DNA from: Puniceicoccales bacterium
Lineage (GTDB): Bacteria; Verrucomicrobiota; Verrucomicrobiia; Opitutales; LL51
Assembly: GCA_031283585.1 (NCBI GenBank)
Contig: JAITBP010000001.1
Coordinates: 20,044-52,043, forward strand
Reading direction: 5' to 3'
Length of the DNA: 32,000 nt
The position numbers and the translations under genes were made by a program. The notes under the pieces were generated by a model. It worked only from the letters and a program-made list of their open reading frames with translations. It did not search any database and was not told the DNA's origin. Positions 4,352 to 31,520 of this stretch are shown here, one piece after another; the stretch's first letter is position 1, and each line of letters starts with the position of its first letter.

Positions 4352-4427
<76 letters not shown>

Positions 4428-4457: not shown

Positions 4458-4480
4458 ATAACTAACTGTCAGTTAGTTAT
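4458..4480. repeat. Perfect 23-bp palindrome (11-bp arms, 1-nt centre) ATAACTAACTG-T-CAGTTAGTTAT overlapping the ATG at 4479
   Basis: Read directly from the sequence: both arms are exact reverse complements. It lies 31 nt after the tRNA-Phe 3' end. The last two bases are the A and T of the downstream start codon. Confidence 0.9.
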
Positions 4481-5321
4481 GAAAACAAAAATTAAATCGT
4501 TGTTATTGCTTTGTGCTCTGGTTTTTGGCCAGGCCAACGCTGGTCCACCCTATGGATCCAATGACTATAATATACTATATAAAGTAGCTAGGACCATGAC
4601 CTCCGGATCGCCAGAGGTAATGGTCATGGATGCTAGTATTGTCAAAGCTGGGCTGAAAAGCGCAATGCGTATATTATTATGCAAAAAACATCCCCGTAAA
4701 CTGTATGACATTTTGAAGGACTATTATGATAGTATGAGAATCTATACATATAACGTTGATGCTGTTGTTAGCGGTGGATTATGTATACCTTTATATCAAG
4801 GGGGGTATGCCTACCAAAGTGGCGATTATTCAGGGTTCATAGAAAATGAGCAACGGTCAATTGTACTTAATTTATCAGATGAAGATATTGTAGGATATAC
4901 AATACGTGATATGCATACATGGCATGAGGCCCATTGTTATTCCAAATTTTTTAACCCTCAGGAAATTGATAAAATGTTTGATGAAGACAATGAAGACCCA
5001 GCTGTACTTAGGCAGTGTGCAAATCTGAAAGCAGCTTTACTTGCTTTAGCAATGGAAATGTTAATGCTTATCTATGATATAAGTAACTATAGAGGAAATG
5101 ATTATCTGAGTGAATTTATGTCATTTTGTATCAATTACTTGAATACTGTTACCCCATTGCCTCCACTACGGTTAGACATATATAACACAGATAACTACTG
5201 CAATTACAACCATTACCTCTTACGTGTGGATGCGGTCATGAGTATATGTTTATTTATTCGTAAATTTATCGATGAAATGATAAACCAATTTACAAATTTA
5301 CCTATGACCATTTCTGATTAA
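4479..5321 (+). CDS. Hypothetical secreted, Cys-containing protein (Sec signal peptide); no recognisable family
   Basis: The internal ATG at 4479 gives MKTKIKSLLLLCALVFGQANA/GPP, a canonical signal peptide. The longer ORF-track start (4395) would overlap tRNA-Phe. The gene looks more AT-rich than its neighbours. Confidence 0.7.
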   Translation: MKTKIKSLLLLCALVFGQANAGPPYGSNDYNILYKVARTMTSGSPEVMVMDASIVKAGLKSAMRILLCKKHPRKLYDILKDYYDSMRIYTYNVDAVVSGGLCIPLYQGGYAYQSGDYSGFIENEQRSIVLNLSDEDIVGYTIRDMHTWHEAHCYSKFFNPQEIDKMFDEDNEDPAVLRQCANLKAALLALAMEMLMLIYDISNYRGNDYLSEFMSFCINYLNTVTPLPPLRLDIYNTDNYCNYNHYLLRVDAVMSICLFIRKFIDEMINQFTNLPMTISD

Positions 5322-7775: not shown

Positions 7776-8978
7776 TCACCTCAGTCTGATTGATCTGCCG
7801 ATAAAATAAAATCCCAGCATGCCTATCAAAATCATCCCCATGGATATCTTACCAACGGTGGCTGGACTGCTCTGGGTTAGCAAAAAGTATCCAATACCTG
7901 GCGATATGAAATTTCTAAGGCCGACCACCGCTGTGTCAGCACTCATATATTCACTTAACTTATTATCTGGGGCTATCTTAGTAACCCAAAGACTCCAGGC
8001 AATTAGGCCGCCGCCGTAGCCTAGGCCGAGGAAAACACTGGCCAGAGCAATGGAAAATGTGTCTCTGGTTGTTAGAAACAATGGAACGCCTATTAGATAG
8101 CATAGATTTACCAATTGCTTCATGGTAACGAATTTGAATCTATCAAAAATTATTCCCCAACACTGGGAACTTATAATTCGCAAAGCAGATGGTATGATTA
8201 CTATAAAGCATGCCACGGTTTGATTGGAAAGATTCATCCCGTATTTTTTATTGACTAGATACTCCACGCGCAATGGTATGGTCATCTGATTGGCGATACC
8301 TATCAATGTCCAGCACAACAGGATGCATCCAAATAACCTGTCCTTCCAAATCAGGTGAAAATTTTCCAATAATTTTCTGCTATTTACATTTGGCAAAGGT
8401 TTTGATGGTATGCCGAGAAATGACAGACCGCATAGCAATGATGCCACAGCAGCAATGGCGAGTACCACTCTGAAGTTTGCTAAGTCTTTATCTAATAATG
8501 CACTACTTATTTCTGAAAAGACCAGGCCAGAAATCGCCATGAAAGTCATCGAAAGACCAAGCCTGGCTCCTCTTTCCTCTTTTGTGTAATTTTGACTATA
8601 GATGTCTATGGTTATGGATACCGGTTGCTTATAGATAAATCTGGAGATTGCCGAGAAGATGAAATACATTTGCCAGCAGTTAGAGATGGCCGATAATGAT
8701 ATTGCTATCGATATAATTAGGAAAAAGATACAGCACATGGTGGTGATTTTTAATCCGGATCGGCAGGTAAGTTTTTGTGTTATTGGTGCCACAAGCATGC
8801 CCGAGAACCCAATGGTTTCGAGCAATGCCTTCATTTCGGTGGGCATATGAAATTGTCTTATTGCTATGAGAAGCATAAGTGTCCTAAACTCTACATCTAC
8901 AATGCCCTGCAGTGCGCATCGGATGGAGTCATGCCTGAACATACGCCTGGACAGCGTTAGTTGATCTGCTTGTTGCAT
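7776..8978 (-). CDS. Polytopic membrane transporter, MFS-like
   Basis: 400 aa with about 12 hydrophobic segments. A DRF(K) loop motif (IIFDRFKF) sits in the second half. The substrate is not identifiable. The start at 8978 overlaps the upstream TPR gene by 22 nt. An alternative ATG is at 8942. Confidence 0.6.
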   Translation of the reverse strand: MQQADQLTLSRRMFRHDSIRCALQGIVDVEFRTLMLLIAIRQFHMPTEMKALLETIGFSGMLVAPITQKLTCRSGLKITTMCCIFFLIISIAISLSAISNCWQMYFIFSAISRFIYKQPVSITIDIYSQNYTKEERGARLGLSMTFMAISGLVFSEISSALLDKDLANFRVVLAIAAVASLLCGLSFLGIPSKPLPNVNSRKLLENFHLIWKDRLFGCILLCWTLIGIANQMTIPLRVEYLVNKKYGMNLSNQTVACFIVIIPSALRIISSQCWGIIFDRFKFVTMKQLVNLCYLIGVPLFLTTRDTFSIALASVFLGLGYGGGLIAWSLWVTKIAPDNKLSEYMSADTAVVGLRNFISPGIGYFLLTQSSPATVGKISMGMILIGMLGFYFIGRSIRLR

Positions 8979-9364
8979 GACTTCGTTTTATTCATTCTCT
9001 TACTAGAAACCATGTCTTTGAATTTTTGACAACTTCTCAGCGAATCTAGATCGGTGTCGTCATTGAGCCATTGCCAATCATTGTAGCCAAGTTCAATGGC
9101 CCGGGTGATCTCCAGAATGGCTCCGGTTTTTTTACCTATCAGCGCTAAGCTACAGGCGAGATTATAATGTGCTATAGGACTTGTTGGATCAAGCTTGACA
9201 TATCTTCTATCCATTTTCACACTCTTTTTCAGATCGCCGCTTTCAGAGTATAACCTGGATAATAGGCGAACAATCTCGATGTCATTTTTCCTTTTTGCGT
9301 AAAGATCTTCGTAAAATTTTTTGTAAAAATCCATGTCGCTAGAGTACATACCGACCTCCATCAT
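8957..9364 (-). CDS. Small cytoplasmic TPR-repeat protein, possibly a T3SS class II chaperone-like protein
   Basis: 135 aa with no signal peptide. TPR-like helices include AHYNLACSLALIGKKTGAILEITRAIELGY. A typical TPR-protein end motif (DDTDLDSLRSCQKFKDMV) is present. It lies immediately downstream of sctC on the same strand. Confidence 0.65.
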   Translation of the reverse strand: MMEVGMYSSDMDFYKKFYEDLYAKRKNDIEIVRLLSRLYSESGDLKKSVKMDRRYVKLDPTSPIAHYNLACSLALIGKKTGAILEITRAIELGYNDWQWLNDDTDLDSLRSCQKFKDMVSSKRMNKTKSCNKQIN

Positions 9365-9432
9365 TACATGATCAGGTTAATGGCTAAAAAGCAAGCACAT
9401 ATTCGTGGATATATTACATATTTTAATAGGTC

Positions 9433-11691
9433 TTACCAGCGACGACGACGACGATGTATGTCCGTAGCCGTGGGTTCCTTCGAATTGGATCCTTCTTCTT
9501 TGGAGGTTGATGTGGATTTTTTGGACAAGTTTTTCAGTTTTTTTTCTGCAATTTTTTCCCTACGTTCTTTTCTACGTTTCTTTAGCTGTTCTTTTTTTTC
9601 TTTTTCCTTACGCTTTTTTTCCTCTTTTTTAGCAGCTCTGTTTTTGATCCTACGTTCTTCTTTGGTGGTCTTGTAGTCTTTTTCTTTGTAGTCATGAAGC
9701 AGGTTAAATTCTTTGGAATCCATGGTTGCTTCGCCGGATAGGTGGCTGTCGTTAAAAAATCTATTATACCTTTTATCCGCCTGGCTTTCTAGCTTTATTA
9801 CCTTTGGGGTGATTAAATATATTCGTTCCAGGATGTTATTGGAATTCATTTTATTTTTGAATATATTTCCCAAAATTGGTATGTCCTTGAGGATTGGTAT
9901 GCCGGTATCACCCTTATCGTGTTGCTCATGGAAGTAGCCACCAATGAAAAGACTTTGGCCTTCGTAGAGCACGGCTTCGGTATTGATAGAACTGGTACTT
10001 GTGGTTGGCGTTCCTGAGGCTCCGAACCTTGGATCTTTGTCCACAGAACCATCGGATACTTCCACGAGTAATTTTATTTTTGGATTCCCTTCTTCGTCGA
10101 ACTCTTCTGGTATTATATGGGGAACGACCACGAGTTTCGTAGAAGCTGTCACATCATATAGGCCCTGGGATTCTTTGCCAGAAACCTGTACATATACGGT
10201 GTTTGAGCGATCTATTACAGCGGCTATGTTATCTACGGTTAACACGGATGGTCTGGCTAGGGTTTGGGCATCACCGGCTTCTTCCAGTGCCTGGATCGTT
10301 GCTGTTAGGGTATAGTTTTTGAAGATACCATTGATACTTGCTTTCGATTTTTCATTATCTGCTGGATTGAACAGGGCTTCCAATCTAGGGCCCTTTAGTT
10401 CTAGGAGATTTGTACCAAATTGCTCTGTAATACCTTTGCGTATGTCTACTATGGCCACATCGATCCTTATGGCCTGCTGGGGCACATCGAGTTGCTCGAT
10501 AAGGTTTCCTAGCAGCTCCATGTCCTGTTTTTTAGCTTTTACGATGACTGAATTTAACCTGGAATCATAGGTTATGAATATATCTTTCCAGGATTTTTCG
10601 ACTTTTGTACCATCATCGCCCTCTTTTGTACCATTACTATTGGTAGCTTTGGTGGCTTTGGAATTTTCATTTTCATCGCTGTTTTTCTTGGATTTATCGT
10701 AGTCGGGCTTAAAGTAATTGCAATTGTCCGTCAGGTCTTTCACCGCCGTGGCCTTATGGACATTCTTACTGTTGATAGCTACACCTATGTTGGTATCACC
10801 GATGGCCCCTGGTTTATTATACAGTAGGGCTTGCAACATGGTTGCGACGCCTGGGATTGTTACAGATCCGCCTTTATAATTAAACGACATGTCGTAGGCC
10901 CAGGCATTTTTTAATCTAAACGATTTTATGTCATAGATATCTGTCATGCGTTCCACAATTATTTTTGATGATAGATCTGAAATAACTTCCATCAGTTTTG
11001 GTGGGCCGCTGACCACCAGTATGCCTGATTTTTCCATGGGTCTAAAGGAAAAATTTGAACTGGAAAACCCTAGCTGGCTCATGACTTTTGCCAAAGAACG
11101 CATTTCGTCCGAGCTCATTTTCCATACATTTGATAGGATTTCGTTGCCTTTGTACACATATAAAATACTGCCATCAAAGAGCCAGGTGAGACCGTAGGCC
11201 TGGGTTATGTCGTGCCAAAATTGTTTCGGCACCACATTGCTAAATTTACCATTTACTATGTCGGTTATCTTCTCACTTACTACCACCTCTACGCCCTGCA
11301 TGGCACAGAAATTTTTTATTAATTCTGTGAGCTGCTGATCCTTGGAGAAATGATAATAGTTAGAATCTTTCCAAGGAATTCCGTCATCGGAGGATTTAAC
11401 CGGACTGACTATCATGCCATAGTCATTTTCTATGGTACCTTGTATTGTGCTGCAGATCAATTCCTTGTCGTCATTAACCTTCTTGGCCTCCTGGCTAGAT
11501 GTTTTTGGGAGGACATTTTCGGTTTTGTTATCGACGGTTTCTTTGGCTTTGTTTACCTGATCGGCTTCAGCTTTATGTACCACGGCTGGTGTCGGTGTAC
11601 CGGATGGGTTTTCACTGGTTTTCTGCAAAGCAGAGGCACATGCATCTGTGAAGAGACATATTAGACATAAGCATGTTGGTATGTAGTTCAT
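9433..11691 (-). CDS. sctC: Type III secretion system outer-membrane secretin SctC (YscC/InvG/CdsC family) with an unusual charged C-terminal extension
   Basis: T3SS-type N0 domain: VVVSEKITDIVNGKF...YGLTWLFDGSILYVYKGNE. Secretin domain: ATIQALEEAGDAQTLARPSVLTVDNIAAVIDRSNTVYVQV ... GIPILKDIPILGNIFK...RIYLITPKVI. I chose the ATG at 11691 (MNYIPTCLCLICLFTDACASA, signal-like). The ORF-track start at 11820 would overlap the upstream gene. Confidence 0.9.
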   Translation of the reverse strand: MNYIPTCLCLICLFTDACASALQKTSENPSGTPTPAVVHKAEADQVNKAKETVDNKTENVLPKTSSQEAKKVNDDKELICSTIQGTIENDYGMIVSPVKSSDDGIPWKDSNYYHFSKDQQLTELIKNFCAMQGVEVVVSEKITDIVNGKFSNVVPKQFWHDITQAYGLTWLFDGSILYVYKGNEILSNVWKMSSDEMRSLAKVMSQLGFSSSNFSFRPMEKSGILVVSGPPKLMEVISDLSSKIIVERMTDIYDIKSFRLKNAWAYDMSFNYKGGSVTIPGVATMLQALLYNKPGAIGDTNIGVAINSKNVHKATAVKDLTDNCNYFKPDYDKSKKNSDENENSKATKATNSNGTKEGDDGTKVEKSWKDIFITYDSRLNSVIVKAKKQDMELLGNLIEQLDVPQQAIRIDVAIVDIRKGITEQFGTNLLELKGPRLEALFNPADNEKSKASINGIFKNYTLTATIQALEEAGDAQTLARPSVLTVDNIAAVIDRSNTVYVQVSGKESQGLYDVTASTKLVVVPHIIPEEFDEEGNPKIKLLVEVSDGSVDKDPRFGASGTPTTSTSSINTEAVLYEGQSLFIGGYFHEQHDKGDTGIPILKDIPILGNIFKNKMNSNNILERIYLITPKVIKLESQADKRYNRFFNDSHLSGEATMDSKEFNLLHDYKEKDYKTTKEERRIKNRAAKKEEKKRKEKEKKEQLKKRRKERREKIAEKKLKNLSKKSTSTSKEEGSNSKEPTATDIHRRRRRW

Positions 11692-11710
11692 ATCATTTAC
11701 ATTGTGCAAC

Positions 11711-12148
11711 TTAGTATGGCTGTAGGGATTGAATTGGTATTTGTTGGGTTGTCGTTGCGTCGGCCCAAAAAGATAGATTAGACACAAAGGATTCGGCTTG
11801 ATGAATGATTTCACAATCATCGATATGCTTTAGTCCAAGCCGCCGTATAATCAGTAGCTTTTGCTGGGCCATATCGATAGAAACCACATCGTTGTTGTCT
11901 TTTAATCGACCAAAATTCCATTGAAGGATTTTTTTTAAAACCGATTCAGATTGTTTGTTGTCCCCAATTGGTTCTCCGACGGTACCGTTAAGTCCAATGG
12001 TGTTATTATCGATTTTGTATACCTTGAGATCGATGGCTTTATCTAAAACAACTTCGTATACACCGCCAATCTCGGTGGCCCAATCTTCGACTCTAAAAAA
12101 TTCCGATAGGATAACAACCGCCTCACTCCACTCCATACGCCAACTCAA
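11711..12148 (-). CDS. Type III secretion class I chaperone-like protein (CesT/SycE fold family)
   Basis: About 141-145 aa, acidic, no signal peptide. The pattern matches T3S chaperones: LKKILQWNFGRL...SIDMAQQKLLIIRRL...ESFVSNLSFW. It lies directly upstream of sctC. The ORF-track start is TTG 12148. An ATG is at 12136. Confidence 0.55.
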   Translation of the reverse strand: MSWRMEWSEAVVILSEFFRVEDWATEIGGVYEVVLDKAIDLKVYKIDNNTIGLNGTVGEPIGDNKQSESVLKKILQWNFGRLKDNNDVVSIDMAQQKLLIIRRLGLKHIDDCEIIHQAESFVSNLSFWADATTTQQIPIQSLQPY

Positions 12149-12363: not shown

Positions 12364-12855
12364 GTGAAATTAAAAATATTTTTACTTTTTAATATGGGAT
12401 TGTGGTTAAATTTAGGTTCTTTGGATGCAGGTATAGAACAATCAGTTGATTCGACAGGAAATCATAGAAACCACAGTAAAAACAGGGTCAATTATAATTA
12501 CTATAATCAGGATCTTCGTCAGCGTATACGCAATAGGATAGCAGGGTTATCGATTAATGAAATTGTAAATATAATTATTGAATATTTATCCATCGGCAGT
12601 GGTGCTGCTTTGAGTTGTGTATTTTTTGATGTGCCCATGGATAGTATTCAAAGTATAATCGGCAGGTTGACCAATCGGCAGATTGTAGATATCCTAGATT
12701 TGGTTATTAACCAAGGGGTAGCAGGTAGTGTTAAAAATATGATCAGGTATTTAGGTATAGAAAATAGGCTTTATGAGATAAGAAACCTGGCTATGGAATT
12801 ACACAGAGACCGGGTTTGGTCATATATAGATTCCGTTAATGAGGATTATATTTAG
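12364..12855 (+). CDS. Hypothetical small exported protein; no recognisable family
   Basis: 163 aa. The GTG start is preceded by AAGGAG at good spacing. The N-terminus KLKIFLLFNMGLWLNLGSLDAG is signal-peptide-like. An AT-rich hairpin with a T-tract follows the stop. Confidence 0.65.
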   Translation: MKLKIFLLFNMGLWLNLGSLDAGIEQSVDSTGNHRNHSKNRVNYNYYNQDLRQRIRNRIAGLSINEIVNIIIEYLSIGSGAALSCVFFDVPMDSIQSIIGRLTNRQIVDILDLVINQGVAGSVKNMIRYLGIENRLYEIRNLAMELHRDRVWSYIDSVNEDYI

Positions 12856-12974: not shown

Positions 12975-14027
12975 CTAGGCAACTGTTATGGACTTTTCTA
13001 GGTACACATCCTGAATTGTGTTTAACAGAGCAATCCCGTCTTTCAGCGATCGCTGGAAGGCTTTTCTGCCACAGATTAGACCGGAACCGCCGGCTCTTTT
13101 ATTTATTATTGCTGTCATAACGGCTTCCTGGAAATCATTTTTACCCGAAGCACCGCCGGAGTTTATAAGACCAATTTTACCCATATAGCAGTTTGCCACT
13201 TGATAACGGGTCAAATCGATGGGATTATTGCTGGTCAATTTGTCATATACATCATCGTGGGTTTTACCAAATTTTAGGTCCCTGAAGCCACCGTTGGTTG
13301 TGGGAAGCTTTTGTTTTATTATATCAGCCTCGATTGTTACGCCAAGATGGTTTGCCTGGCCGGTTAGGTCTGCCGCTGTGTGGTAGTCTTTTTCCTTTGT
13401 GGAAAAGGCTGAGTTTCGCAGATAACACCACAGGATTGTTACCAGGCCAAGCTCATGGGCATATTCGAAGGCCTTGGTGGTTTCCTGGATTTGCCTGGTG
13501 GATTCATCGGATCCAAAATAAATGGTGGCACCTATGGCTGCGGCTCCCAGGTTATAGGCCTGGCTGACGCTGCCAAAGTATATCTGATCGTGCTTATTAG
13601 GGTAGGTAAGTAGTTCGTTATGATTGAGTTTTACAACAAACGGTATCCTGTGGGCATATTTTCTGCTCAGCAATCCCAGGCATCCAATCGTAGATGCCAC
13701 GGCATTGCAACCACCTTCAATGGCCAGTTTAACTATATTCTCCGGATCAAAATACAGAGGGTTTGGTGCAAAACTCGCTCCGGCCGAATGTTCTATGCCC
13801 TGATCCACGGGCAGAATCGAAGTATAGCCGGTGCCGGCTAGCCGACCTGAGTTTAGGATTCTGGCAAAGTTATTCAGAACAGTGGTTGGCCGGTCGGAAT
13901 GAACAAGAATTCTGTCGATATAATCTGGGCCAGGCAGATGTAGATCCGATTTTTTAATCGCCGTACATTTATGCTCAACTAATTTGTGTTTGTCCCCATC
14001 TATGAAATCTATAATATGCTTGTTCAT
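12975..14027 (-). CDS. fbaB: Class I fructose-bisphosphate aldolase (FbaB/DhnA type)
   Basis: [43 protein letters not shown] and the downstream blocks match the FbaB/DhnA family. The start is taken at ATG 14027 (MNKHIIDF), giving 350 aa, the length of E. coli FbaB. The longer ORF (to 14240) would overlap ppdK by 143 nt. Confidence 0.9.
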
Positions 14028-14097
14028 GAGGTTATGGTATTTGTAAATCAATGGACTTGCAATAAAATAATAAAGTATCAACGGAATTTTGGTTGTC

Positions 14098-16794
14098 CTA
14101 TTTAGCCATGAGATTGGCCTGGGCTGCGGCGATTCTTGCAATGGGAACTCGATTTGGTGAGCAGCTTGTATAGGCCAGACCAATGCGATGCCAGAACATG
14201 ATAGATGCTGGATCTCCGCCATGTTCACCACAGATACCAATTTTTATATTTGGCCTGGTTGCTTTACCACGCTCGCAGGCAAGCTGGATTAGCTGTCCTA
14301 CGCCTTCGCTATCTATCGATGCAAATGGATTCGTTTTTATTATTTCCTGTTCAATATATTCCGGAAGAAATGTGCCGGAATCGTCGCGGCTCATACCCAG
14401 GGCTGTTTGGGTCAAATCATTTGTACCAAAACTGAAAAATTCTGCTGTTTCGGCTATTTTATCTGCTAGCAATGCGGCTCTCGGCAGTTCTATCATTGTG
14501 CCTACGGTATATTTGATATCCAGGCCGGTTTTTTGCATCACGGCCTTGGCAGCCTGATGGATTAGCGTTACCTGAGAATCAAGTTCTTCTTTATAGGCGA
14601 CCAGAGGAACCATTATTTCCGGATTCACCGCTGTGCCGCTTTGAATGACACTGGCTGTGGCTTCAAAGATGGCTGTGGCCTGCATGGTTGTTATTTCCGG
14701 GTAGGTTACGCCGAGACGGCAGCCTCGATGGCCTAGCATAGGATTTAATTCATGCAATGCCTGAACCCGACTGCGGACTTTATCTTCAGGAATGTTAAGT
14801 TTTTTAGCCAAAGCAGCTTGAGTATCTTGAGTATTTGGTAAAAATTCATGCAGAGGCGGATCTAGCAGACGAATTGTCACCGGGAAGCCTTTCATTGCCC
14901 TGAAAATGCCTTCGAAGTCGCCACGTTGCAGCGGTTGTAGTTTATCCAAAGCCCGTTGCCTGTCCTCGGTACAATCGGCCAGAATCATCTCACGCATAAA
15001 ATCGATACGATCTCCCTGAAAAAACATATGCTCGGTTCTGCAAAGACCTATGCCTTTGGCACCCAATGCCACTGCCATGGCGGCCTGTTCCGGCGTATCT
15101 GCATTGGTTCGTATATCTAATTTGCGATATTGATCAGCCCAATTCATCACTGTGTCGAACAGCCTGAATGTGTAGCTCTCTTCAGCCTGCATTGCGCCGG
15201 CTAACACCCGATTTACTTCGGAAGGTATGGTGGTGACCTGGCCAATAAATACCTCTCCGGAAGTTCCGTCGATGGATAGATATTCGCCTTCCTTTATTAT
15301 TGTTTCGCCGACGGAAATGGTTTTTGCCGAGTAATCCATATGGAGCGCACCGGCTCCACAAACGCATACTTTTCCCATTTGTCTTGCCACCAGTGCTGCG
15401 TGAGAACTTACTCCGCCGCGGGTGGTTAAGATACCTTCCGAGGCTAGCATTCCTCTTATATCCTCGGGAGATGTTTCGATCCTGCAAAGTATGGCTTTTT
15501 CACCTCTAGCGTGGGCCTCTTCGGCCGTTTTTGCCGAAAAATATACCTTTCCTGAGGCGGCTCCTGGGCCCGCTGCTAGACCCTGGGCTATTTTCTTTAC
15601 GGCTTTCTTACCGTTTGGATCGAAGACCGGCACCAGTAGAGATGAAATCGATTCAGCTGCTATGCGAGTCAGAGCCATTTCCTTGGTTATTCTGTTTTCT
15701 CCGACCATTTCGACGGCAATTCTAACGGCGGCCATGCCGGTTCTTTTGCCATTGCGAGTCTGCAGCATATACAGTTTGCCCTGCTGGACGGTGAACTCGA
15801 AGTCCTGCATATCCTTGAAATGATCTTCAAGGGTTTGGCATACTTTTACCAGCTGTTCATATACCCCTGGCATATCCTGTTTGAGACCTGCAATGGGCTG
15901 TGGTGTTCTTATGCCGGCAACCACGTCTTCCCCCTGGGCATTGATTAGATATTCTCCATAAAATACTTTTTCACCGGTGGCCGGATTTCTCGTGAAAGCA
16001 ACGCCGGTGGCACAATCGTCACCCCTGTTGCCAAACACCATGGATTGCACATTCACCGCCGTACCCCATTCGGCCGGAATGTTATATTTTCTTCTATAGA
16101 TTATGGCCCGTTCATTATGCCAGGATTCGAACACTGCTCCAATGGCACCACTGAGTTGTTCGTAGATATCCTGGGGGAATTCTCTGCCCGTAGTGCTACG
16201 GATCAATGCCTTGTATTCCTTTATTATTTCGATCAAATCTTCCTGGGACAGCTGGGTGTCATCGGAAACGTTCGCCTTGGCTTTGGCCTTGTCTATTATT
16301 ATTTCGAATGGATCTCTGGAGTGTTCATCCTTGGCATGGACACCCATCACCACATCGCCGTACATTTGAATGAATCTTCTATAGCAGTCCTGGGCAAATC
16401 TCTGGTTATTGGTATTTTTAGCAAGTCCTTCGACGGTTTCGTCATTTAATCCAAGGTTAAGGATTGTGTCCATCATACCTGGCATGGATTCTCGAGCACC
16501 AGATCTGACAGAAAATAGTAGTGGATTAGCTTTATCTCCAAATAGCTTGTCCTGCTGTTTTTCTACATTTTTTATAGCCAACAGAACCTGTTGCCATACC
16601 GGTTCAGGTAGCTTTTTGCCATTGGAATAGTATTCCATGCAGACTTCGGTTGGTATAGTAAACCCTGGAGGTACCGGTAACCCGATCTTTGCCATTTCGG
16701 CGAGATTGGCACCTTTGCCACCAATGATGCTCTTCATAGAAGCGTCGCCATCGGTTTTAATTCCGAATTCAAATATATAATTTTTTGGAGCCAT
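14098..16794 (-). CDS. ppdK: Pyruvate, phosphate dikinase
   Basis: 898 aa. N-terminal ATP-grasp [10 protein letters not shown], phospho-histidine swivel motif [19 protein letters not shown], and C-terminal PEP-utilising TIM barrel ([19 protein letters not shown]). Confidence 0.97.
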
Positions 16795-16910: not shown

Positions 16911-16939
16911 TTGACAAGAAATAAAATCCACGTTGAGAT
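16911..16939 (+). promoter_or_regulatory. Candidate promoter (TTGACA-N17-TGAGAT) for the 16966 gene
   Basis: Perfect -35 at 16911-16916 and a weak -10 at 16934-16939, preceded by an A/T UP-like tract. If real, it excludes the TTG 16933 start and supports ATG 16966, which follows AAAGGAAAAGGG. Confidence 0.35.
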
Positions 16940-16965
16940 GCCAGAAATTTAAAAAAGGAAAAGGG

Positions 16966-18411
16966 ATGAAAAAACTATATAATTATGTGTGTATTATCTG
17001 CTGGGCTGTGGCCATGTTCTGTCCAGAATCGGCGTTAGCTTTCAAATGCGATGGTGTAAGATTCAATGAGCATAACTATGCTATTGGCAAAGGTGATTGG
17101 ATAGGTCCTATGGATCAAGATCAATATGTGAATAAGCATGGATTGAAGTGGATTCTTGAAATTGAAGAAACTGACTATTATGATGATATGCAAGATAGAA
17201 TAGACAAATTGGGTGCAAGTGTTAAATATTATTTACTTTTTGAGAAAAAAAGTAATGAAATAAATCTAGAAAAAACCGAAATTGATAAGTTGTCTAACCT
17301 TATAAAAATGAGCACTGATACTAGCTGCTGGGTCAATATTAGTAATAATGCTAATAAGCCTGAAGAGCCTGAAGGACGGTTAAATGGAAGACATTATATG
17401 AAAAAGAAAACATGGTTCGATAAGGGTGTAAAACGTATCGATGAATGTGAAGATTTTTATGAAATAGACAATGAAAAGTCTACCACTTTAAATGTAGTCT
17501 TTCAAATACAGTATGGTGTGCCTTACTATAGGTATTCGCATACAATGTCCATCCCATCACACCATAAGTATCAGATGACGGAAAAATCGGTAACAAATGC
17601 TATAGGCTTTGCTCTGAGAGATGATCAAAGTAAAGTGATTGAAATTTATGAAATTGATGGAATAAAAAAATACTTGGCCGATTTTTTGGTAGATAATAAA
17701 GCTGCCTGGGATGCGATTTTACGTGACTACAACACACAGACGGGAAAGGTAATTTTTTATAACATGTCATCCCTGATAATTGAGACTATTCTCAATATTT
17801 GTAATAATGAGGTACCAAATTTAAAGGAAATAACTGAAAATAGCCTGAATGAGATCATTAAAGACTTATACGAAATTGATTATTTATTTTCAGAATGGAA
17901 ATATTTTATGCCTATAAAAGTTTGTGAATATTTTGATGCTGTACTCAAAATTATATATGGCGTTTTTGATGTAGGTGTGTTAAAAAATATCTTTAGTATG
18001 AATGGGCCAGATTTCGATAATGCCATGATTGAGGAGTGTAAATGCTGTATTACTAGAGAGCTTTGTATTATTATTAAAGTTTTAAATGAGATTGGTAAAA
18101 TTTTGGATACTGAAACTGCTATAGGTCCTTACGAAGTTCCTAGCCGTTCAACTTCTAGTTCTACAACTTCTACAACTTTTAGCTATTCAACCCCTAGTTC
18201 TACAACTTTTAGCTATAATAGTTATGGAATGGATTACTTATATTCAAAATCTGAAAATGTAGGATATCAAAGAAATAACGGAAAAAGTAGAAGAGGCAGA
18301 AGAAATAGGCGTAATTCCAGGCGTCGCCGTATCACTAGAAAAAATAGAAAAAGAAACAGAAGAAACAGAAGAAACAGAAAAATTAGGAAAAACAGAAGAA
18401 CCAGAAGGTAA
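16966..18411 (+). CDS. Hypothetical exported Cys-rich protein with a Ser/Thr-rich linker and a 45-residue poly-arginine C-terminal tail
   Basis: Signal peptide MKKLYNYVCIICWAVAMFCPESALA/FK. The roughly 400-aa body has many Cys and no family I recognise. A STTFSY-type repeat follows. In the last 45 residues I count 23 Arg and 5 Lys, with no acidic residue. A hairpin terminator follows the stop. Confidence 0.8.
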   Translation: MKKLYNYVCIICWAVAMFCPESALAFKCDGVRFNEHNYAIGKGDWIGPMDQDQYVNKHGLKWILEIEETDYYDDMQDRIDKLGASVKYYLLFEKKSNEINLEKTEIDKLSNLIKMSTDTSCWVNISNNANKPEEPEGRLNGRHYMKKKTWFDKGVKRIDECEDFYEIDNEKSTTLNVVFQIQYGVPYYRYSHTMSIPSHHKYQMTEKSVTNAIGFALRDDQSKVIEIYEIDGIKKYLADFLVDNKAAWDAILRDYNTQTGKVIFYNMSSLIIETILNICNNEVPNLKEITENSLNEIIKDLYEIDYLFSEWKYFMPIKVCEYFDAVLKIIYGVFDVGVLKNIFSMNGPDFDNAMIEECKCCITRELCIIIKVLNEIGKILDTETAIGPYEVPSRSTSSSTTSTTFSYSTPSSTTFSYNSYGMDYLYSKSENVGYQRNNGKSRRGRRNRRNSRRRRITRKNRKRNRRNRRNRKIRKNRRTRR

Positions 18412-18430
18412 TTCTTTTCAATAAATTAAG

Positions 18431-18470
18431 TAGACAGAGGCTATCTATCGGGTAGCCCTTTGTCTATTTA
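18431..18470 (+). terminator. Candidate intrinsic terminator hairpin
   Basis: TAGACAGAGGCTA (18431-18443) pairs with TAGCCCTTTGTCTA (18453-18466), with one G-U pair and one bulge. It is followed by TTTA and begins 20 nt after the stop codon. Confidence 0.5.
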
Positions 18471-18666
18471 TCGATAGTTGTTGCCATGGTAACAATGTAT
18501 TACTGATCAGCACGGAAGTGTGTCGGTAATGGCGATATTGACAGGAATAGCCCCTGGATAGTTAAGCAGGATTCAGAGATAATAGACGAGGGCCGGGGCT
18601 AAATGGTTCTCGGTTGTGGTTTATTTGTGATTTCAAGGCAGTCATAAAAAACATTATAGCCTGAAC

Positions 18667-20189: not shown

Positions 20190-22256
20190 TTATGCACCTG
20201 TGCCTATTTCACTAACCTTTTCCTGTTTTTTGCCTTTGTAGTGTATTATACTATCGGCCAATGACATGGACATGGTGGTATTTTGTGCTGAGCCCATTCC
20301 AAGAGCCGTATTACCTGCCACGCCTCTCTGGTCTTCTTTTATTGTTCTTGTATCTCTGAAAAAGCCTGAAACTCCTCGTTTGATTCCTCTCCAGATGCTT
20401 TCGTCTATCTTTTCTGTAAAACCCTGCATCTTTTCATTGGCAAGCATTCTGGCCAGGTAATCAATTGATGAACCATTCCAATCACCTGTATATACCTCAT
20501 CGTTTTTTATTATTTCGAAAACCGTTTTGCGGAATTCTTCTATCTGGCCTGGAGCGACTTTTGATGAAGATAGCATCGATTCAAAATACGTTAAAGCCTG
20601 GAGTTTTTCTTTAACACTGGCAGGTAAGGTTCCTGTAATTGGTTGGCCAATGGTAAATCCTGTTTCCAGGGTTAGTCCATTGTAGGCATTGTTGACGTTT
20701 CCTTTTTGTAGCGCTTTTACTCGTCTAGCCTTTGAAACCGTCGAATTATAGGCGGCGTTTCTTAGGGTTGTCTCGAGCCTTTCTGGATTTTTAAGCACAG
20801 CTTCACGTTCGGATGGACTCAATGATTTGAATGATGCCACGATATATCTGGTGGCTCTATCATCACCCTTTTTCCCAATTTCACCGAGAACCCTTTCGAA
20901 TATGTCCTTATTTACTTTGCTTATAGCATCTTTTATGGCAGCGATATCTCCACCGGAAACATCACTATATATATCTATTATTATCGAATCACCCTCTGCT
21001 TTATTGGCCGATTGAGATGAGGCAAGTGGGTCAATGAAAGGTTGTTTCGGCGTTTCCACCTTTGACTCCGATGGAACTCCCTGTTGCTTTGGCGTATTGA
21101 CTTCCGGTATCTTTGTCTCATCTACTGTTGTCTTTGGTGTATGATGATGTTCATGTATATGTATTGAATTATCAACATTAATCCTTGAATTATCAGCATA
21201 TTTGGTTGTATTACCATTGGGATCTGCAGCTTTATCAGTACCTGATGTAGTGCTAGTCGCTGTGTTTTGACCGACTTTCTGAGAACCGTCGTCGCTGCCG
21301 CTGATCTTAGTATTTGGCGTGATGTCTTGACCAACTTTCTGGGAATCGCTACCTGCAATGGGTTTGCTACCAGAACCTATCGAAACATTAGGTTTAGTGA
21401 AAGGTTGACCCTTATTAAAATAGTCTACTTTATCTTTAAAAGGCATGTTAGATTGTCTATCAGTAAACTTATTGGGCTTGGCTTGATTTTGGTCGACTTT
21501 CTGGGAATCGCCACCTGCAATGGGTTTGCTACCAGAACCTGACGAGGTGTTTATTGGTTTGTTATCGCCCAGGTTGATACCTTTTCCATAGTTTGGCAAC
21601 AGTGGTACTATCGAAACACCTCTGATTTGGTTTCCTTTAAGGTTATCGGTGGTGCGTACATGACTAGGTGACATAGCTTGAATATCCTCCAATGGTGTCT
21701 CTATAATTTGAGGTGGTTCTGGTAAGCTTGGTGTTTTGCTTGATTGGGTTTTAAGAGATCTTAAAGCTTCTTGTACTTCCTGTCGTGGTAAAGCGTTATA
21801 GGTATTGGTGGCAACTTCTTTTGGAGTGCCAGACGTTCCCTGGGCTGCTTTGTATTGTTCGTTCTTTTTATTGATTATGTTTCTGCAAAATGACTCCATG
21901 GTAGCTGGCGAAGCTAGCACTTGCGTTCTTTCATCAGGTGTTAACAAAGTAAATGCCATTGCAGTAAATTTATCAGCGTCATTTTTAACTTTATCATATG
22001 CTTTTAAAGGTAACAATGTGGCAGTGTCTATTTTGTAATCTTTGAAGATGGCTGTTACAACCGTTTGGGCCGTTTCTGCTTTTTTTTGATCCAGTTCAGT
22101 TAGTTTTAATGTGGAATAACCGCTAGCATTCATTACAGTTGGACCACTTCCGTTGAGTTGCTTTAATTTAAAATTGCCAAATTCACCCTGTAGGTTTTTG
22201 ATCTTCTCGGATGCAGCTGATTGGGTAACTTGAGTTACTGACGAAATCGATGACAT
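20190..22256 (-). CDS. Large hypothetical repeat-containing protein without a signal peptide; T3SS effector candidate
   Basis: 688 aa. The N-terminus is polar and S/T/Q-rich (MSSISSVTQVTQSAASEK) with no hydrophobic segment. The centre is low-complexity with repeated SGSKPIAG(G/S)DSQKV units and a HIHEHHH cluster. Two paralogous about 60-aa modules are present. No family recognised. Confidence 0.8.
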   Translation of the reverse strand: MSSISSVTQVTQSAASEKIKNLQGEFGNFKLKQLNGSGPTVMNASGYSTLKLTELDQKKAETAQTVVTAIFKDYKIDTATLLPLKAYDKVKNDADKFTAMAFTLLTPDERTQVLASPATMESFCRNIINKKNEQYKAAQGTSGTPKEVATNTYNALPRQEVQEALRSLKTQSSKTPSLPEPPQIIETPLEDIQAMSPSHVRTTDNLKGNQIRGVSIVPLLPNYGKGINLGDNKPINTSSGSGSKPIAGGDSQKVDQNQAKPNKFTDRQSNMPFKDKVDYFNKGQPFTKPNVSIGSGSKPIAGSDSQKVGQDITPNTKISGSDDGSQKVGQNTATSTTSGTDKAADPNGNTTKYADNSRINVDNSIHIHEHHHTPKTTVDETKIPEVNTPKQQGVPSESKVETPKQPFIDPLASSQSANKAEGDSIIIDIYSDVSGGDIAAIKDAISKVNKDIFERVLGEIGKKGDDRATRYIVASFKSLSPSEREAVLKNPERLETTLRNAAYNSTVSKARRVKALQKGNVNNAYNGLTLETGFTIGQPITGTLPASVKEKLQALTYFESMLSSSKVAPGQIEEFRKTVFEIIKNDEVYTGDWNGSSIDYLARMLANEKMQGFTEKIDESIWRGIKRGVSGFFRDTRTIKEDQRGVAGNTALGMGSAQNTTMSMSLADSIIHYKGKKQEKVSEIGTGA
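21274..21540 (-). repeat. Intragenic direct repeats: two 45-bp copies differing at 1 position (21334-21378 and 21496-21540, period 162 bp), plus a degenerate third copy starting near 21274
   Basis: Read directly from the sequence: ACTTTCTGGGAATCGC[T/C]ACCTGCAATGGGTTTGCTACCAGAACCT. In frame (54 codons apart), encoding GSGSKPIAG(G/S)DSQKV. Confidence 0.9.
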
Positions 22257-22389: not shown

Positions 22390-22465
22390 GGGGGAGTAGC
22401 TCAGTGGATAGAGCAACGGTCTTCTAAACCGAAGGTCGAGAGTTCGAGTCTCTCTTCCCCCGCCA
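22390..22465 (+). tRNA. tRNA-Arg (anticodon UCU), CCA encoded
   Basis: Hand-folded. Acceptor GGGGGAG/TTCCCCC, D arm GCTCAGTGGATAGAGC, anticodon loop CTTCTAA, T arm GAGAG-TTCGAGT-CTCTC, then GCCA. Confidence 0.93.
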
Positions 22466-28484: not shown

Positions 28485-31400
28485 ATGGAAGGTAAGGAAA
28501 TTGATAAAGATGTTTTAACAAAGCGATTTAGCCAGGTTTGCCTATTGACTGTCGTGGGTATGGGCTTTGGTGTCGTGGATTTGCAGGGTGATGTTACAAC
28601 TAAGGACAGTGGCGTTAGATCAACCTTAACAGATATTAACAGTTCCACTGATACTGGTTATCTTGAGACCACCGCGGTTGATAAATTCGCAGTTATTGAG
28701 ATTTCAGGCAATACGGGTAATAATGAAGTTAGTGAGCATGATTTTACGTTGAAAGGTGGTGGTACCGTTGGTCTTAGCTTTAACGCAACATCAGCTACGG
28801 ATGAATTTATAATGAAGCGTAACAGCAAATGCATAAAGATCGAAGGTACGCCAAAATTAGTGTTTTTTGATGCTACCTATTCCACCAATGATGTAAAAAT
28901 CAAAGCTGATGAAACGTTAAATTCCTTTTCCGGTCAATTATTGCTGAAAACCGGCGATAAGAAATTGATTTTCAGCGATGGTAAAATTAATCCTACTGGT
29001 GCTGCGTTGCGTGTTGTAACCACCAAGACTGGTGCTGTTCAAGTTGGTGCAAGTGGTTCGATATTGGATTCTGGTTTTACCGTAAAAAATCTGATACTTG
29101 GTGCGAATCCAGGCGAAGATTTGAAAATTGTGAAATACACCGATGCTTCCGGTGGTACGGCAGGTAATAACATGGATTTCGTCGATATCGGCACCGATGG
29201 CAGTGGCGGTAACCTGATTGCATTTGTAGATACTGAAAAAGGTGTTTTGATCACCGAAGGAGGTATCGTCTATGGTGAAAGCTCGTTGAAGTTAGCAAAT
29301 AATACAGCAAATGGTGAATTGAATATTGCCAACAGCTTGGAGGTTAAGGCAGGTGCGACATTGACACTTATGGGTGTAAAAGATGATGGTACGACTGCTA
29401 ATGACCTAACGATCAGGGCAGCAAAGGATTTAGCTGGAGCAGAGGTTGATGAAGCAACCAAAGGACGCATCATCATCAATGGTGGTGCTATGGTAAAGCT
29501 TGGCAGTAATATTAATTTTACAGTAAAGGATAAAAAAATTAACGCCAGTTTTGTGCTTACTGGCACCGGTGATAGCGATGCCTTAATAGCTAAATTGGTT
29601 GCCGATGGTTCTGGTGGGACCCTATCGATGATGGGAGAGATGGTTAATCCGGCGATATTGGTTTCTGATAATTGCTTTGGTTCCATCGGTGGTGAGAAAA
29701 AATTGATCATATCTGGTGATAGTACAAAAAATGTCTTGGTCCAGGTTGGTGCTAAAAGTACGTTGAAGATTGCTGGCGAAGTTGTGCTGAATTCCTCCTC
29801 GGCTACTCCGGGTGAAAAATCCTTTGTGGTTGGAGAAAAAGCCAACCTTGTATTTACCGATGCGGCTAAGCATCGGCTGGAAATTGGTGCAAATGATAAG
29901 ATAATTTTTAGTAATGAATCTGAGATTCGATTCGCGACGCCGGAAGATAGCAATGTACGTGGCCAATTATTTTTAGCCAAGGTCGATAATTTTGTTGGCC
30001 AAAACAGTACCAAGGTAGCGCTTTCTTGCGGCCTATTGGTCAAGGACATGGTTAGGAAAGCTCCAGGTATTAGTGTGAACAAATTGACATTGGTTGAGCT
30101 TGGAGATAATAAGGCCAGTGTATTTGCCGAAAGAGTTGACGTTAGCGGTGCCGATAATTTTATCTCAGACTATGTTTTTGGCCCTACAGACGGTAGTGGA
30201 TCTAAATATGGTATTGTTAGCACAACCATACATACCTACGGCGAAGCTTTTGAAGCCAATGAAATCGATGATACTGGTGTCTCCGGAGACTTTATCGATA
30301 AAGTAGAAGAGATGCAGGGTAATAGCAGTGTAAGCAATGATGAGGTCAAGCTGTTCGGTATGTTGATTGCCGATTATGATAAGGACGAAGATGGTTTTGA
30401 TAATGGTGATATCGCCAGATCCATATCTCGCAGTACGGTGGAGGAACGTAACCGGGTGACCATTGCTTTGGCCAATATGGCTCGCCAGGCAATCTATGGC
30501 CATATGGCTAGAGAAACCCATAACCGGGAGCTTTGGCTGGCCGGTATGGTGGATATGGTCCGCCAGAATGAGGTCAATGGCTATGGTATGCATGCCGGAT
30601 TATGGGGTGCTGTAATAGGCTATGATGCCGGCGTTAATGATGAGTTGGTGCTTGGATTGATGGCTGGCTGTGTCCATGCCACCGTGAGGTATAACGGGAT
30701 GACGTTGCTAGGTGGTAACAATGGTAGGCAGCTGACCGGTTTTGGTGGTTTCTACGGTGAATGGGAATCCTTGGTCCGGGATCTTTGGATCAAGTTTTCC
30801 GGATTGTTTGGTCAAGTAAAATATAAGGAGTGGGGAAATAGGCCTATTCCCGATGAAGAAGGTGACCATGAGGCAGAGATCGGTAGATTTTTCAGTTCAC
30901 ACAAGGGCCACTGGCTATCCTTTAATATGGATAGTGTTTGGCTAACCGGTGAGTACAAGGACCTGAAGTTTGGGCCCTGGCTGGCTTTATCCTATGATTA
31001 TGTCCACCAGAGGTCCGGTAGCGAGGTTGTGACGATGGAAGACGAACCCGCTCCCGACCAAACCAAGACTGCGGCGGCTGTTCAACCAGCTCCGGCGGCT
31101 CAACCGGCGACGGCGACCCAACCGGCGGCCCAGCCGGATCAACAGACACCGGCGGCTACCCCAGCGGCCAAGGCCGATGAAGATAATGACGAGGATGGCA
31201 TAGTCTATGGCAAGTCCGGCCGTCATATGTTGTCCGGCGTGTTTGGCGTTCACATGGAGGGCGAGTTACCTTTGGGGAAAATCTTTGTCGAGGTTGGTTA
31301 TAAACGCGAATTTTGTCGAAGAAACCGGATCGGCGATAGTCAATTTTTGGGTCTGGAGTACGCTCCGGCCATCGGTCATGCCACGAAAAACCTCTGTATT

Positions 31401-31520
31401 ATTCGAACCGGCTATGGGTTGACAAAGAACCACTGGGGCCTGGATTTTGGTCTGGAGGGCCAGCTTGGCCGTAATTTTAAAGATTGTTCTGCCAACATCG
31501 TGGCCACCTATTCGTTCTGA
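28485..31520 (+). CDS. Autotransporter (type Va) outer membrane protein, Pmp-like beta-helical passenger plus C-terminal beta-barrel
   Basis: 1011 aa. Hydrophobic N-terminal segment FSQVCLLTVVGMGFGVV. The long G/T/V/N/S-rich passenger has scattered GGx and FxxN-like motifs. The C-terminal translocator signature is RELWLAGMVDMVRQNEVNGYGMHAGLWGAVIGYDAGVNDELVLGLMAG. It ends in ATYSF, a terminal aromatic residue. Confidence 0.85.
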   Translation: MEGKEIDKDVLTKRFSQVCLLTVVGMGFGVVDLQGDVTTKDSGVRSTLTDINSSTDTGYLETTAVDKFAVIEISGNTGNNEVSEHDFTLKGGGTVGLSFNATSATDEFIMKRNSKCIKIEGTPKLVFFDATYSTNDVKIKADETLNSFSGQLLLKTGDKKLIFSDGKINPTGAALRVVTTKTGAVQVGASGSILDSGFTVKNLILGANPGEDLKIVKYTDASGGTAGNNMDFVDIGTDGSGGNLIAFVDTEKGVLITEGGIVYGESSLKLANNTANGELNIANSLEVKAGATLTLMGVKDDGTTANDLTIRAAKDLAGAEVDEATKGRIIINGGAMVKLGSNINFTVKDKKINASFVLTGTGDSDALIAKLVADGSGGTLSMMGEMVNPAILVSDNCFGSIGGEKKLIISGDSTKNVLVQVGAKSTLKIAGEVVLNSSSATPGEKSFVVGEKANLVFTDAAKHRLEIGANDKIIFSNESEIRFATPEDSNVRGQLFLAKVDNFVGQNSTKVALSCGLLVKDMVRKAPGISVNKLTLVELGDNKASVFAERVDVSGADNFISDYVFGPTDGSGSKYGIVSTTIHTYGEAFEANEIDDTGVSGDFIDKVEEMQGNSSVSNDEVKLFGMLIADYDKDEDGFDNGDIARSISRSTVEERNRVTIALANMARQAIYGHMARETHNRELWLAGMVDMVRQNEVNGYGMHAGLWGAVIGYDAGVNDELVLGLMAGCVHATVRYNGMTLLGGNNGRQLTGFGGFYGEWESLVRDLWIKFSGLFGQVKYKEWGNRPIPDEEGDHEAEIGRFFSSHKGHWLSFNMDSVWLTGEYKDLKFGPWLALSYDYVHQRSGSEVVTMEDEPAPDQTKTAAAVQPAPAAQPATATQPAAQPDQQTPAATPAAKADEDNDEDGIVYGKSGRHMLSGVFGVHMEGELPLGKIFVEVGYKREFCRRNRIGDSQFLGLEYAPAIGHATKNLCIIRTGYGLTKNHWGLDFGLEGQLGRNFKDCSANIVATYSF

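Follow-up and report, generated by a model that had tools for sequence, protein, structure and literature searches.

A singleton gene of a Puniceicoccales bacterium encoding a putatively exported protein with a 45-residue polyarginine tail

Here, we describe a single gene, located at 16966-18411 in a 32,000 nt stretch of DNA from a Puniceicoccales bacterium (assembly GCA_031283585.1, contig JAITBP010000001.1, positions 20,044-52,043 of the forward strand). This whole stretch is referred to below as the window and all coordinates are those of the window. The product of 481 aa combines a predicted Sec signal peptide with a C-terminal tail of 45 residues, about half of which are Arg, and no relative was found in the collections searched. 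We tentatively favour, at rather less than even confidence and from features of the sequence, the reading that this is a lineage-specific exported protein whose tail would bind polyanions non-specifically. The parts of the gene and its immediate flanks are as follows.

16911-16939, + strand: weak promoter-like element, with a perfect -35 hexamer TTGACA (16911-16916), a 17 nt spacer and a poor -10 hexamer TGAGAT (16934-16939)
16955-16965, + strand: Shine-Dalgarno (SD)-like purine tract AAGGAAAAGGG, with an AGGA core 6 nt from the ATG at 16966
16966-18411, + strand: open reading frame (ORF) of 481 aa, counted from the ATG at 16966
16966-17040, + strand: predicted Sec/signal peptidase I (SPase I) signal peptide, residues 1-25, MKK / LYNYVCIICWAVAMFC / PESALA, with cleavage before F26
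17041-18141, + strand: mature body, residues 26-392, acidic, with Lys greatly exceeding Arg and a helix-rich C-terminal half
18142-18225, + strand: Ser/Thr-rich spacer, residues 393-420 (SRSTSSSTTSTTFSYSTPSSTTFSYNSY), 28 residues rich in Ser, Thr, Phe and Tyr, encoded by in-frame 9 and 15 nt tandem repeats
18263-18426, + strand: alternative +1 frame, open for 54 codons across the whole tail, DIKEITEKVEEAEEIGVIPGVAVSLEKIEKETEETEETEKLGKTEEPEGNSFQ followed by a stop codon
18274-18408, + strand: polycationic tail, residues 437-481, NNGKSRRGRRNRRNSRRRRITRKNRKRNRRNRRNRKIRKNRRTRR, the distal part being an in-frame 9 nt array (RRN/RKN units)
18427-18470, + strand: terminator-like hairpin with a 20 bp stem and a weak U tract, 16 nt 3' of the stop codon

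The tail consists of 23 Arg, 5 Lys, 9 Asn and 2 each of Gly, Ser, Ile and Thr, with neither Asp nor Glu, which reproduces exactly the count of Arg, Lys and acidic residues given in a preliminary description of this DNA. It therefore has the density of Arg (at least ~8 in a short stretch lacking acidic residues) that is used to recognize Arg-rich motifs. Both Arg codon families are used (15 AGA, 4 AGG, 3 CGT and 1 CGC). When the tail was compared with those of 1724 non-overlapping ORFs, drawn from the window and from 160 related loci, its net charge of +28 was the maximum. The next highest value among the 112 ORFs with a signal peptide-like N-terminus was +13 and was due to lysines, and the other very basic tails in the set (+25 or +26) are made up of Lys/Ala AKKA repeats and are found on proteins that do not have a signal peptide. 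Among Arg codons, AGA is used most often by the housekeeping genes of the window (97 of 353), and the tail, with its 15 AGA, therefore does not depend on rare codons. A tRNA-Arg(TCT), which decodes AGA, lies at 22390-22465 (+ strand), 4 kb 3' of the gene.

Tandem repeats are found in both the spacer and the tail. In the spacer, a repeat with a period of 9 (2.2 copies, 18159-18178) is followed by one with a period of 15 (3.1 copies, 18171-18217), while the tail includes 6.3 copies of a 9 nt unit (AAGAAACAG) at 18351-18407. These periods are all multiples of three and the reading frame is, hence, kept. The preliminary description had proposed a modular layout, with a Ser/Thr-rich linker derived from direct repeats, and the linker repeats were recovered at these positions. 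The signal-like N-terminus, the body, the spacer and the polyarginine tail are likewise all present.

The ORF is a real gene, as its length is far beyond chance (P ~1e-19 for 481 codons without a stop at the base composition of the gene itself), which bears out the original call. It is also more AT-rich than its neighbours, as had been noted (GC content 32.4 % compared to 0.41-0.47 as a fraction for neighbouring genes), and the predicted terminator is well supported (18427-18470, dG -24 kcal/mol, z = -6.1), as none of 200 shuffled sequences folded equally well. Two further claims made for the gene did not hold up. The body was said to be Cys-rich. However, Cys makes up 12 of the 481 aa (2.5 %), with three of the 12 inside the signal peptide, and the other window proteins have between 0.1 and 3.1 %. 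The gene was also said to have its own promoter-like site, but a consensus promoter scan of the region returned 12 sites where 9.5 +/- 3.0 were expected from shuffled sequences and did not call the element at 16911-16939, the -10 hexamer of which agrees with TATAAT at only three of six positions. Beyond the hairpin, approximately 200 nt (18471-18666) that include no gene and no Rfam match separate it from the stop codon of clpP, and a second terminator-like hairpin is found at 18587-18612. This interval also includes two differences between the haplotypes compared below, a 3 nt indel (after 18567) and a single nucleotide polymorphism (SNP; 18580).

The DNA encoding the tail can also be read in the +1 frame, where the product is Glu-rich, forming an ordinary-looking acidic terminus that ends just before the terminator hairpin. 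A run of five A residues (A5; GGAAAAAGT, ~18284) lies exactly where a 1 nt error would swap one frame for the other, and two frames open over the tail were seen in only 0.6 % of shuffled sequences. One explanation is that the true gene stays in the Glu frame and that the Arg tail is an artefact of a sequencing or assembly frameshift at the A5 run. An independent Logan assembly of SRR14710909 (L001) was available for comparison. Comparison over 12 kb revealed 7 SNPs and the 3 nt intergenic indel between it and the window. It thus represents a distinct haplotype, and yet the DNA of the tail is identical in the two. An error of frame or assembly in the repeat, which the preliminary description had allowed for, was therefore not seen at the assembly level, and with the properties of the tail set out next also speaking against it, we regard an artefact of this type as very improbable.

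That the Arg frame is the genuine one, and that it has been selected rather than arising by accident, is supported by three observations. The first is the identity of the tail in the second haplotype. The second is a GC-rich, non-repetitive patch, AGG CGT AAT TCC AGG CGT CGC CGT, that reads RRNSRRRR. At least six Arg in eight codons were found in only 4 of 200,000 shuffles of this patch and, when it is read in the Glu frame, four of the eight codons end in C, compared to 12 % of codons in the body of the gene (P ~0.01). The third is the nature of the differences between the repeat units, which in the Arg frame are conservative or silent (R<->K, AGA<->AGG, AAC<->AAT) and in the Glu frame would be E<->K, E<->G and T<->I.

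The same data bear on whether the tail has any function. The gene could be a young or decaying singleton with a tail for which there has been no selection, generated either by neutral growth of purine repeats (AGA/GAA) or by a genuine frameshift in an ancestral Glu-rich C-terminus (…EKVEEAEEIGVIPGVAVSLEKIEKETEETEETEKLGKTEEPEGNSFQ). The open +1 frame of 54 codons that stops just short of the hairpin and the low frequency with which both frames are open by chance are consistent with this, as are the AT-richness of the gene, the simple 9 nt array, the fact that relatives were not found, and the single SNP within the gene that distinguishes the two haplotypes, which is non-synonymous (V->E). The codon-usage likelihood also slightly prefers the Glu frame (-3.63 compared to -4.09 per codon), though amino acid frequency dominates this score and it cannot settle which frame is used. 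However, the Arg-richness continues outside the array, into the CGN/AGG patch, where the Glu frame would need an excess of C-ending codons, and the variation between repeat units is conservative if read as Arg but reverses charge (E<->K) if read as Glu. The openness of the Glu frame also needs no further explanation if T occurs only at the wobble positions of Arg and Asn codons, and the upstream ORF of 436 codons is intact in both haplotypes. Hence, a tail of this origin without a selected function appears unlikely, though it is an explanation that carries appreciable weight.

The N-terminus reads MKKLYNYVCIICWAVAMFCPESALA/FKCDG, where the slash marks the predicted cleavage site. The n-region has a charge of +2, the hydrophobic core (VCIICWAVAMFC) has a mean Kyte-Doolittle (KD) value of 2.69 over 12 residues, and Pro is found at -6 and Ala at both -3 and -1. 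This is the anatomy of a Sec/SPase I signal peptide, namely a basic n-region, an h-region of 7-15 residues, a polar c-region and small residues at -3 and -1. A crude signal-peptide heuristic passed 112 of the 1724 ORFs including this one (111 of 1723 background ORFs). Elsewhere in the protein, the maximum KD over 19 residues is 1.49, and there is no other membrane-spanning segment. A Tat signal peptide was considered and rejected, as no twin-arginine motif (S/T-R-R-x-F-L-K) is present in MKK, or in MRCQKFKKGKGMKK if translation began at an upstream TTG. This TTG (16933, in frame) would add just 11 mostly basic residues to the n-region. A lipoprotein signal (SPase II) was also rejected because there is no lipobox ([LVI][ASTVI][GAS]C) at the end of the h-region, the Cys at positions 9, 12 and 19 being preceded by V, I and F rather than by G, A or S.

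The position of the start codon is critical and public gene calls differ, with the NCBI annotation starting at GTG 17008 (467 aa), the IMG annotation at ATG 17014 (465 aa) and the Logan prediction at ATG 16966 (481 aa). ATG 16966 is favoured because it alone is preceded by an SD-like tract (AAGGAAAAGGG); no purine tract was found before GTG 17008 or ATG 17014. The housekeeping genes of the window (PPDK, ClpP, GyrB, PheT and others) mostly do not have an SD motif, and it is probably for this reason that callers trained on the genome gave the motif no credit and chose the downstream starts. Of the AT-rich orphan genes, those starting at 12364 and 16966 do have an SD motif, and this may reflect a foreign origin. 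The claim of a textbook Sec signal peptide in the preliminary description is, thus, sound for the classical n/h/c organization and the A-x-A motif, but the disagreement over the start stands, and we consider the signal peptide probable rather than proven.

If translation did begin at GTG 17008 or ATG 17014, the protein would be cytoplasmic. A related outcome is that the tail stalls the Sec machinery, leaving the protein tethered at the inner membrane. In either case, export would not occur and the tail would bind nucleic acids or anionic lipids of the bacterium itself. The start codons chosen by NCBI and IMG are consistent with this, as is the fact that all of the other highly basic tails in the related loci (AKKA-type, e.g. 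in L038, L091 and L092) are on proteins with no signal peptide. It was also reported that Arg is rate-limiting for transport through SecYEG and scarce in secreted proteins (PMC9110029). However, a downstream start would leave an ordered and in-frame n/h/c signal upstream of the gene by coincidence, and ATG 16966 is the only start with an SD-like motif. The acidic body in which Lys predominates over Arg, together with a Ser/Thr spacer typical of extracytoplasmic linkers, also speaks against this reading. We therefore think it rather unlikely that the protein is not exported.

The composition of the body sharpens this question. Residues 26-436 include 35 Lys, 11 Arg and 63 Asp plus Glu, and the net charge of the mature body is -17. 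Allen et al. (eLife 2022, PMC9110029) showed that Arg passes through SecYEG more slowly than any other residue, that it is under-represented relative to Lys in Sec substrates, and that transport is hindered where positive charges occur in runs. The 35 : 11 preference for Lys in the body is the bias reported for Sec substrates, though the AT-richness of the gene would act in the same direction. Hence, the body obeys the Arg-depletion rule and the tail breaks it, and either the tail is exported at a cost, or the C-terminus is kept from crossing the membrane, or Sec is not the route taken by this protein. As Arg is rate-limiting for Sec, it is the pairing of a signal peptide with polyarginine, more than an unusual localization, that is puzzling.

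The searches for relatives were extensive. When the complete protein was used in a word-indexed search of 5.8 billion clustered proteins, only the protein itself was found (MDR2735249.1, 'hypothetical protein LBB20_00160, Puniceicoccales bacterium', in a protein cluster of three members that include the Logan prediction), and an exhaustive HMMER search of 1.84 billion representatives using the body alone also returned only itself. No matches to the protein were found in Pfam, NCBIfam, PHROGs, PADLOC or the PDB sequences (best E >= 0.065, all short) or, using tblastn, in phage genomes and plasmids. Scans for peptide patterns in species-representative genomes, viral contigs and JGI metagenomes revealed no relative, and a query consisting of the tail only returned six candidates, none of which scored. 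There is no paralogue in the window, where the only Rfam matches were to three tRNAs. The statement that the body matches nothing recognizable, originally made without database searches, can now be made for all of these collections.

A search of related genomes had also been recommended, and was performed using the PPDK gene as an anchor for synteny. Though 160 related loci were recovered, neither these nor the large collections yielded a homologue. The closest, in metagenome-assembled genomes (MAGs) also designated 'Puniceicoccales bacterium', share 69-72 % identity in PPDK, and in these MAGs gene order is not conserved and a homologue is absent. PPDK identity to metagenome contigs was no greater than 65 %. 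The gene is therefore a strict singleton, a real accessory gene that is strain-specific so far. Among the related loci, several of marine Puniceicoccaceae type (L038, 5668-6457; L091, 1041-2040; L092, 5647-6559; and L096, L110 and L135; all - strand) carry, close to PPDK, a gene for a conserved protein of ~260-330 aa. The N-terminus of this protein includes ...TSPLTFDLQQELLDKLKQLQKK..., it has no signal peptide, and the AKKA-type Lys/Ala tail (+25 or +26) is histone H1-like.

Most of the window is taken up by housekeeping genes (encoding FtsY, PheT, a DeoC-type aldolase, PPDK, ClpP, RpoZ, SmpB, GyrB and GyrA), and interleaved with them are genes for host interaction, including those for type III secretion, and several orphans. 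The features of interest here are:

8957-9364, - strand: small TPR protein
9433-11820, - strand: type III secretion secretin SctC (TIGR02516, 355.7 bits compared to a cut-off of 238.45)
11711-12148, - strand: CesT-family chaperone (30.2 bits compared to a cut-off of 22)
28485-31520, + strand: autotransporter of 1011 aa, with beta-domain PF03797 and an unrecognized passenger domain

The dispersed layout of the type III genes in 8957-12148 is similar to that of the scattered type III secretion system (T3SS) clusters of the Chlamydiae. As injectisome genes are present, the bacterium is probably associated with eukaryotic cells, and the suggestion in the preliminary description that it is host-associated gains support from SctC and the chaperone. 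The autotransporter is a candidate for a further surface or host-interaction factor. Verrucomicrobial endosymbionts found in the nucleus and cytoplasm of termite-gut protists make up the 'Nucleococcus cluster' (PMC8204192), and a tie between this bacterium and that cluster is only a lead. To judge by the style of their names, the nearest MAGs may be bins from termite guts.

The presence of SctC and the CesT-family chaperone indicates that the genome encodes an injectisome, and the proximity of these genes (SctC and the chaperone 5-7 kb away and, with the TPR protein, 5-8 kb upstream) raises the question of whether the protein is a type III effector. In that case, it would be injected into a eukaryotic host, the tail would serve in nuclear or nucleolar targeting or in nucleic acid binding, and the N-terminus would not be a Sec signal. 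Many effector genes are, like this one, orphans of high AT content, which is also consistent with this possibility. However, type III secretion signals are polar and disordered, and the N-terminus here is strongly hydrophobic with an A-x-A motif. Furthermore, the chaperone gene is not adjacent, and no similarity to known effectors was found in profile or sequence searches. Injection by this route is accordingly considered improbable to a marked degree. A second orphan in the window, of 688 aa (20190-22256, - strand), looks more like a T3SS substrate than does the protein described here. It includes one Cys and has no match in Pfam, NCBIfam, PHROG or PADLOC, and its features are a polar, Ser-rich N-terminus MSSISSVTQVTQSAASEK, repeats SGSGSKPIAGGDSQKVDQNQ and IGSGSKPIAGSDSQKVGQD, and a His-rich patch, IHIHEHHH.

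Two other AT-rich orphans share the kind of N-terminus seen in the 481 aa protein, which supports the view that the latter is a secreted protein. The first (4479-5321, + strand, GC content 0.36) is found directly 3' of the tRNA-Phe (4352-4427) and has a signal-like start MKTKIKSLLLLCALVFGQANA/G. The other (12364-12855, + strand, GC content 0.34) adjoins the CesT chaperone gene, has a signal-like start MKLKIFLLFNMGLWLNLGSLDA/G and is preceded by a strong SD-like motif, AAAGGAG. No family match was found for either, and we suggest that the three make up a set of lineage-specific secreted proteins. Nearby, the longest ORF for the DeoC-type aldolase (12975-14240, - strand, 421 aa if a TTG is taken as the start) shares 143 nt with the end of PPDK (14098-16794, - strand), and its true start is probably further downstream, the Logan call being 368 aa.

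Returning to the reading that we favour, we infer that the Sec/SPase I signal peptide would be cleavable and that the pre-protein would be exported across the inner membrane. The Ser/Thr spacer would then keep the tail apart from the acidic body and so present it. The 45-residue Arg/Asn/Lys tail may have arisen by in-frame growth of the 9 nt repeats and could serve as a non-specific electrostatic module for polyanions. Its targets could be on the bacterial side, namely lipopolysaccharide (LPS) or another polymer of the cell's own envelope, or on the host side, namely membranes, surface glycans or nucleic acids. A further possibility is entry into host cells, with accumulation in the nucleus or nucleolus. 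In its strongest form, this would make the Sec-exported polyarginine module a cell-penetrating device that targets the nucleus or nucleolus, independently of the injectisome, in a protist- or animal-associated Verrucomicrobium. This stronger version would need the kinetic barrier to passage of Arg through SecYEG to be overcome, and we consider it improbable.

Several points weigh against an exported protein with a polyanion-binding tail. Given the slow passage of Arg through SecYEG (PMC9110029), a segment of 45 residues of which 23 are Arg would be expected to cross only with great difficulty, and no outer-membrane route was identified for this protein as a Sec substrate. The downstream starts in the NCBI and IMG annotations cut away the signal. 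No homologue that would show the tail or the signal peptide to be conserved was found in the collections searched, and a single-sequence AlphaFold2 model was judged unusable (predicted local distance difference test score 36.9, predicted template modelling score 0.25). To these can be added the slight preference of the codon-usage score for the Glu frame and the non-synonymous nature of the only SNP in the gene.

Known Arg-rich motifs for cell penetration, RNA binding or nucleolar targeting, such as those of HIV Tat (RKKRRQRRR) and HIV Rev (TRQARRNRRRRWRERQR) or oligoarginine, are like the tail in their density of Arg and in having no acidic residues, and strings in the tail such as RRNRRNSRRRR are similar to the Rev motif. 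By analogy, the same physico-chemistry, namely binding to polyanions, heparan sulphate, RNA and DNA, would be expected for the tail. However, the known motifs are viral, eukaryotic or synthetic, are 8-17 residues long and are either cytosolic or added from outside, whereas the tail is 45 residues long and belongs to a bacterial protein with a Sec-type signal. As the search with the tail was empty and low-complexity strings of this type allow no claim of homology, the resemblance appears to be at best functional.

Among bacterial proteins, the Sec-dependent effectors or nucleomodulins SAP11 of phytoplasma and LntA of Listeria carry a signal peptide and a short basic nuclear localization signal (NLS), and are found in single-membrane organisms where Sec export suffices. 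The protein described here is like them in combining a signal peptide with a basic element and in coming from a bacterium likely to be associated with eukaryotic cells. It differs in that the organism is diderm, with the route across the outer membrane not known, and in the length of the tail (45 residues), and there is no sequence similarity. Here too, the likeness would be one of layout, and membership of neither the Arg-rich motif class nor the Sec-dependent NLS effectors can be claimed.

PEP-CTERM/exosortase sorting signals are frequent in Verrucomicrobia and these, like LPXTG-type signals, share with the protein a signal peptide, a Ser/Thr-rich region and a C-terminal Arg cluster. However, the Arg cluster of PEP-CTERM proteins is ~3-6 residues rather than 45, and a PEP-CTERM/exosortase substrate was rejected, as there is no PEP motif, no C-terminal transmembrane helix (the KD maximum outside the signal peptide being too low, as noted above) and no NCBIfam match at E <= 0.1. 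The tails of nucleoid or histone-like proteins (chlamydial Hc1/Hc2, and the AKKA tails of L038, L091 and L092) are also long, cationic, C-terminal and built from repeats, but they are made of Lys and Ala, and the proteins are cytoplasmic with no signal peptide, whereas this tail is made of Arg and Asn and stands behind a signal peptide. In phage endolysins with natural polycationic C-termini and in the engineered Artilysins, the terminal peptide allows the secreted enzyme to attach to, or pass through, outer membranes that contain LPS, and the polycationic terminus is shared with them. An endolysin was nevertheless rejected, as no lysozyme, amidase or other catalytic domain was found in the body and there is no phage context. 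In summary, by the tests applied the protein fits none of lipoprotein, Tat substrate, autotransporter passenger, endolysin or histone-like protein. It is plausible that it belongs among the secreted proteins of bacteria that carry a basic tail for targeting or adhesion, in which company the combination of features is unusual.

The evidence comes from a single lineage and the practical impact is, for now, limited. If the tail is the product of repeat expansion or of a frameshift, it would be an example, in a young orphan gene, of purine-rich repeats in which a 1 nt shift switches the end of a protein from a polyanionic (Glu) to a polycationic (Arg) form or back. Should the tail be exported along with the rest of the protein, the gene would provide a natural exception to the avoidance of Arg by Sec substrates, useful for studying how positive charge crosses SecYEG. 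The tail would then also be a polyarginine module that has evolved naturally in a bacterium and is comparable to those designed as cell-penetrating peptides. As the Verrucomicrobium in question carries a T3SS and is probably symbiotic, such an exported tail could point to a second way into host cells or their nuclei.

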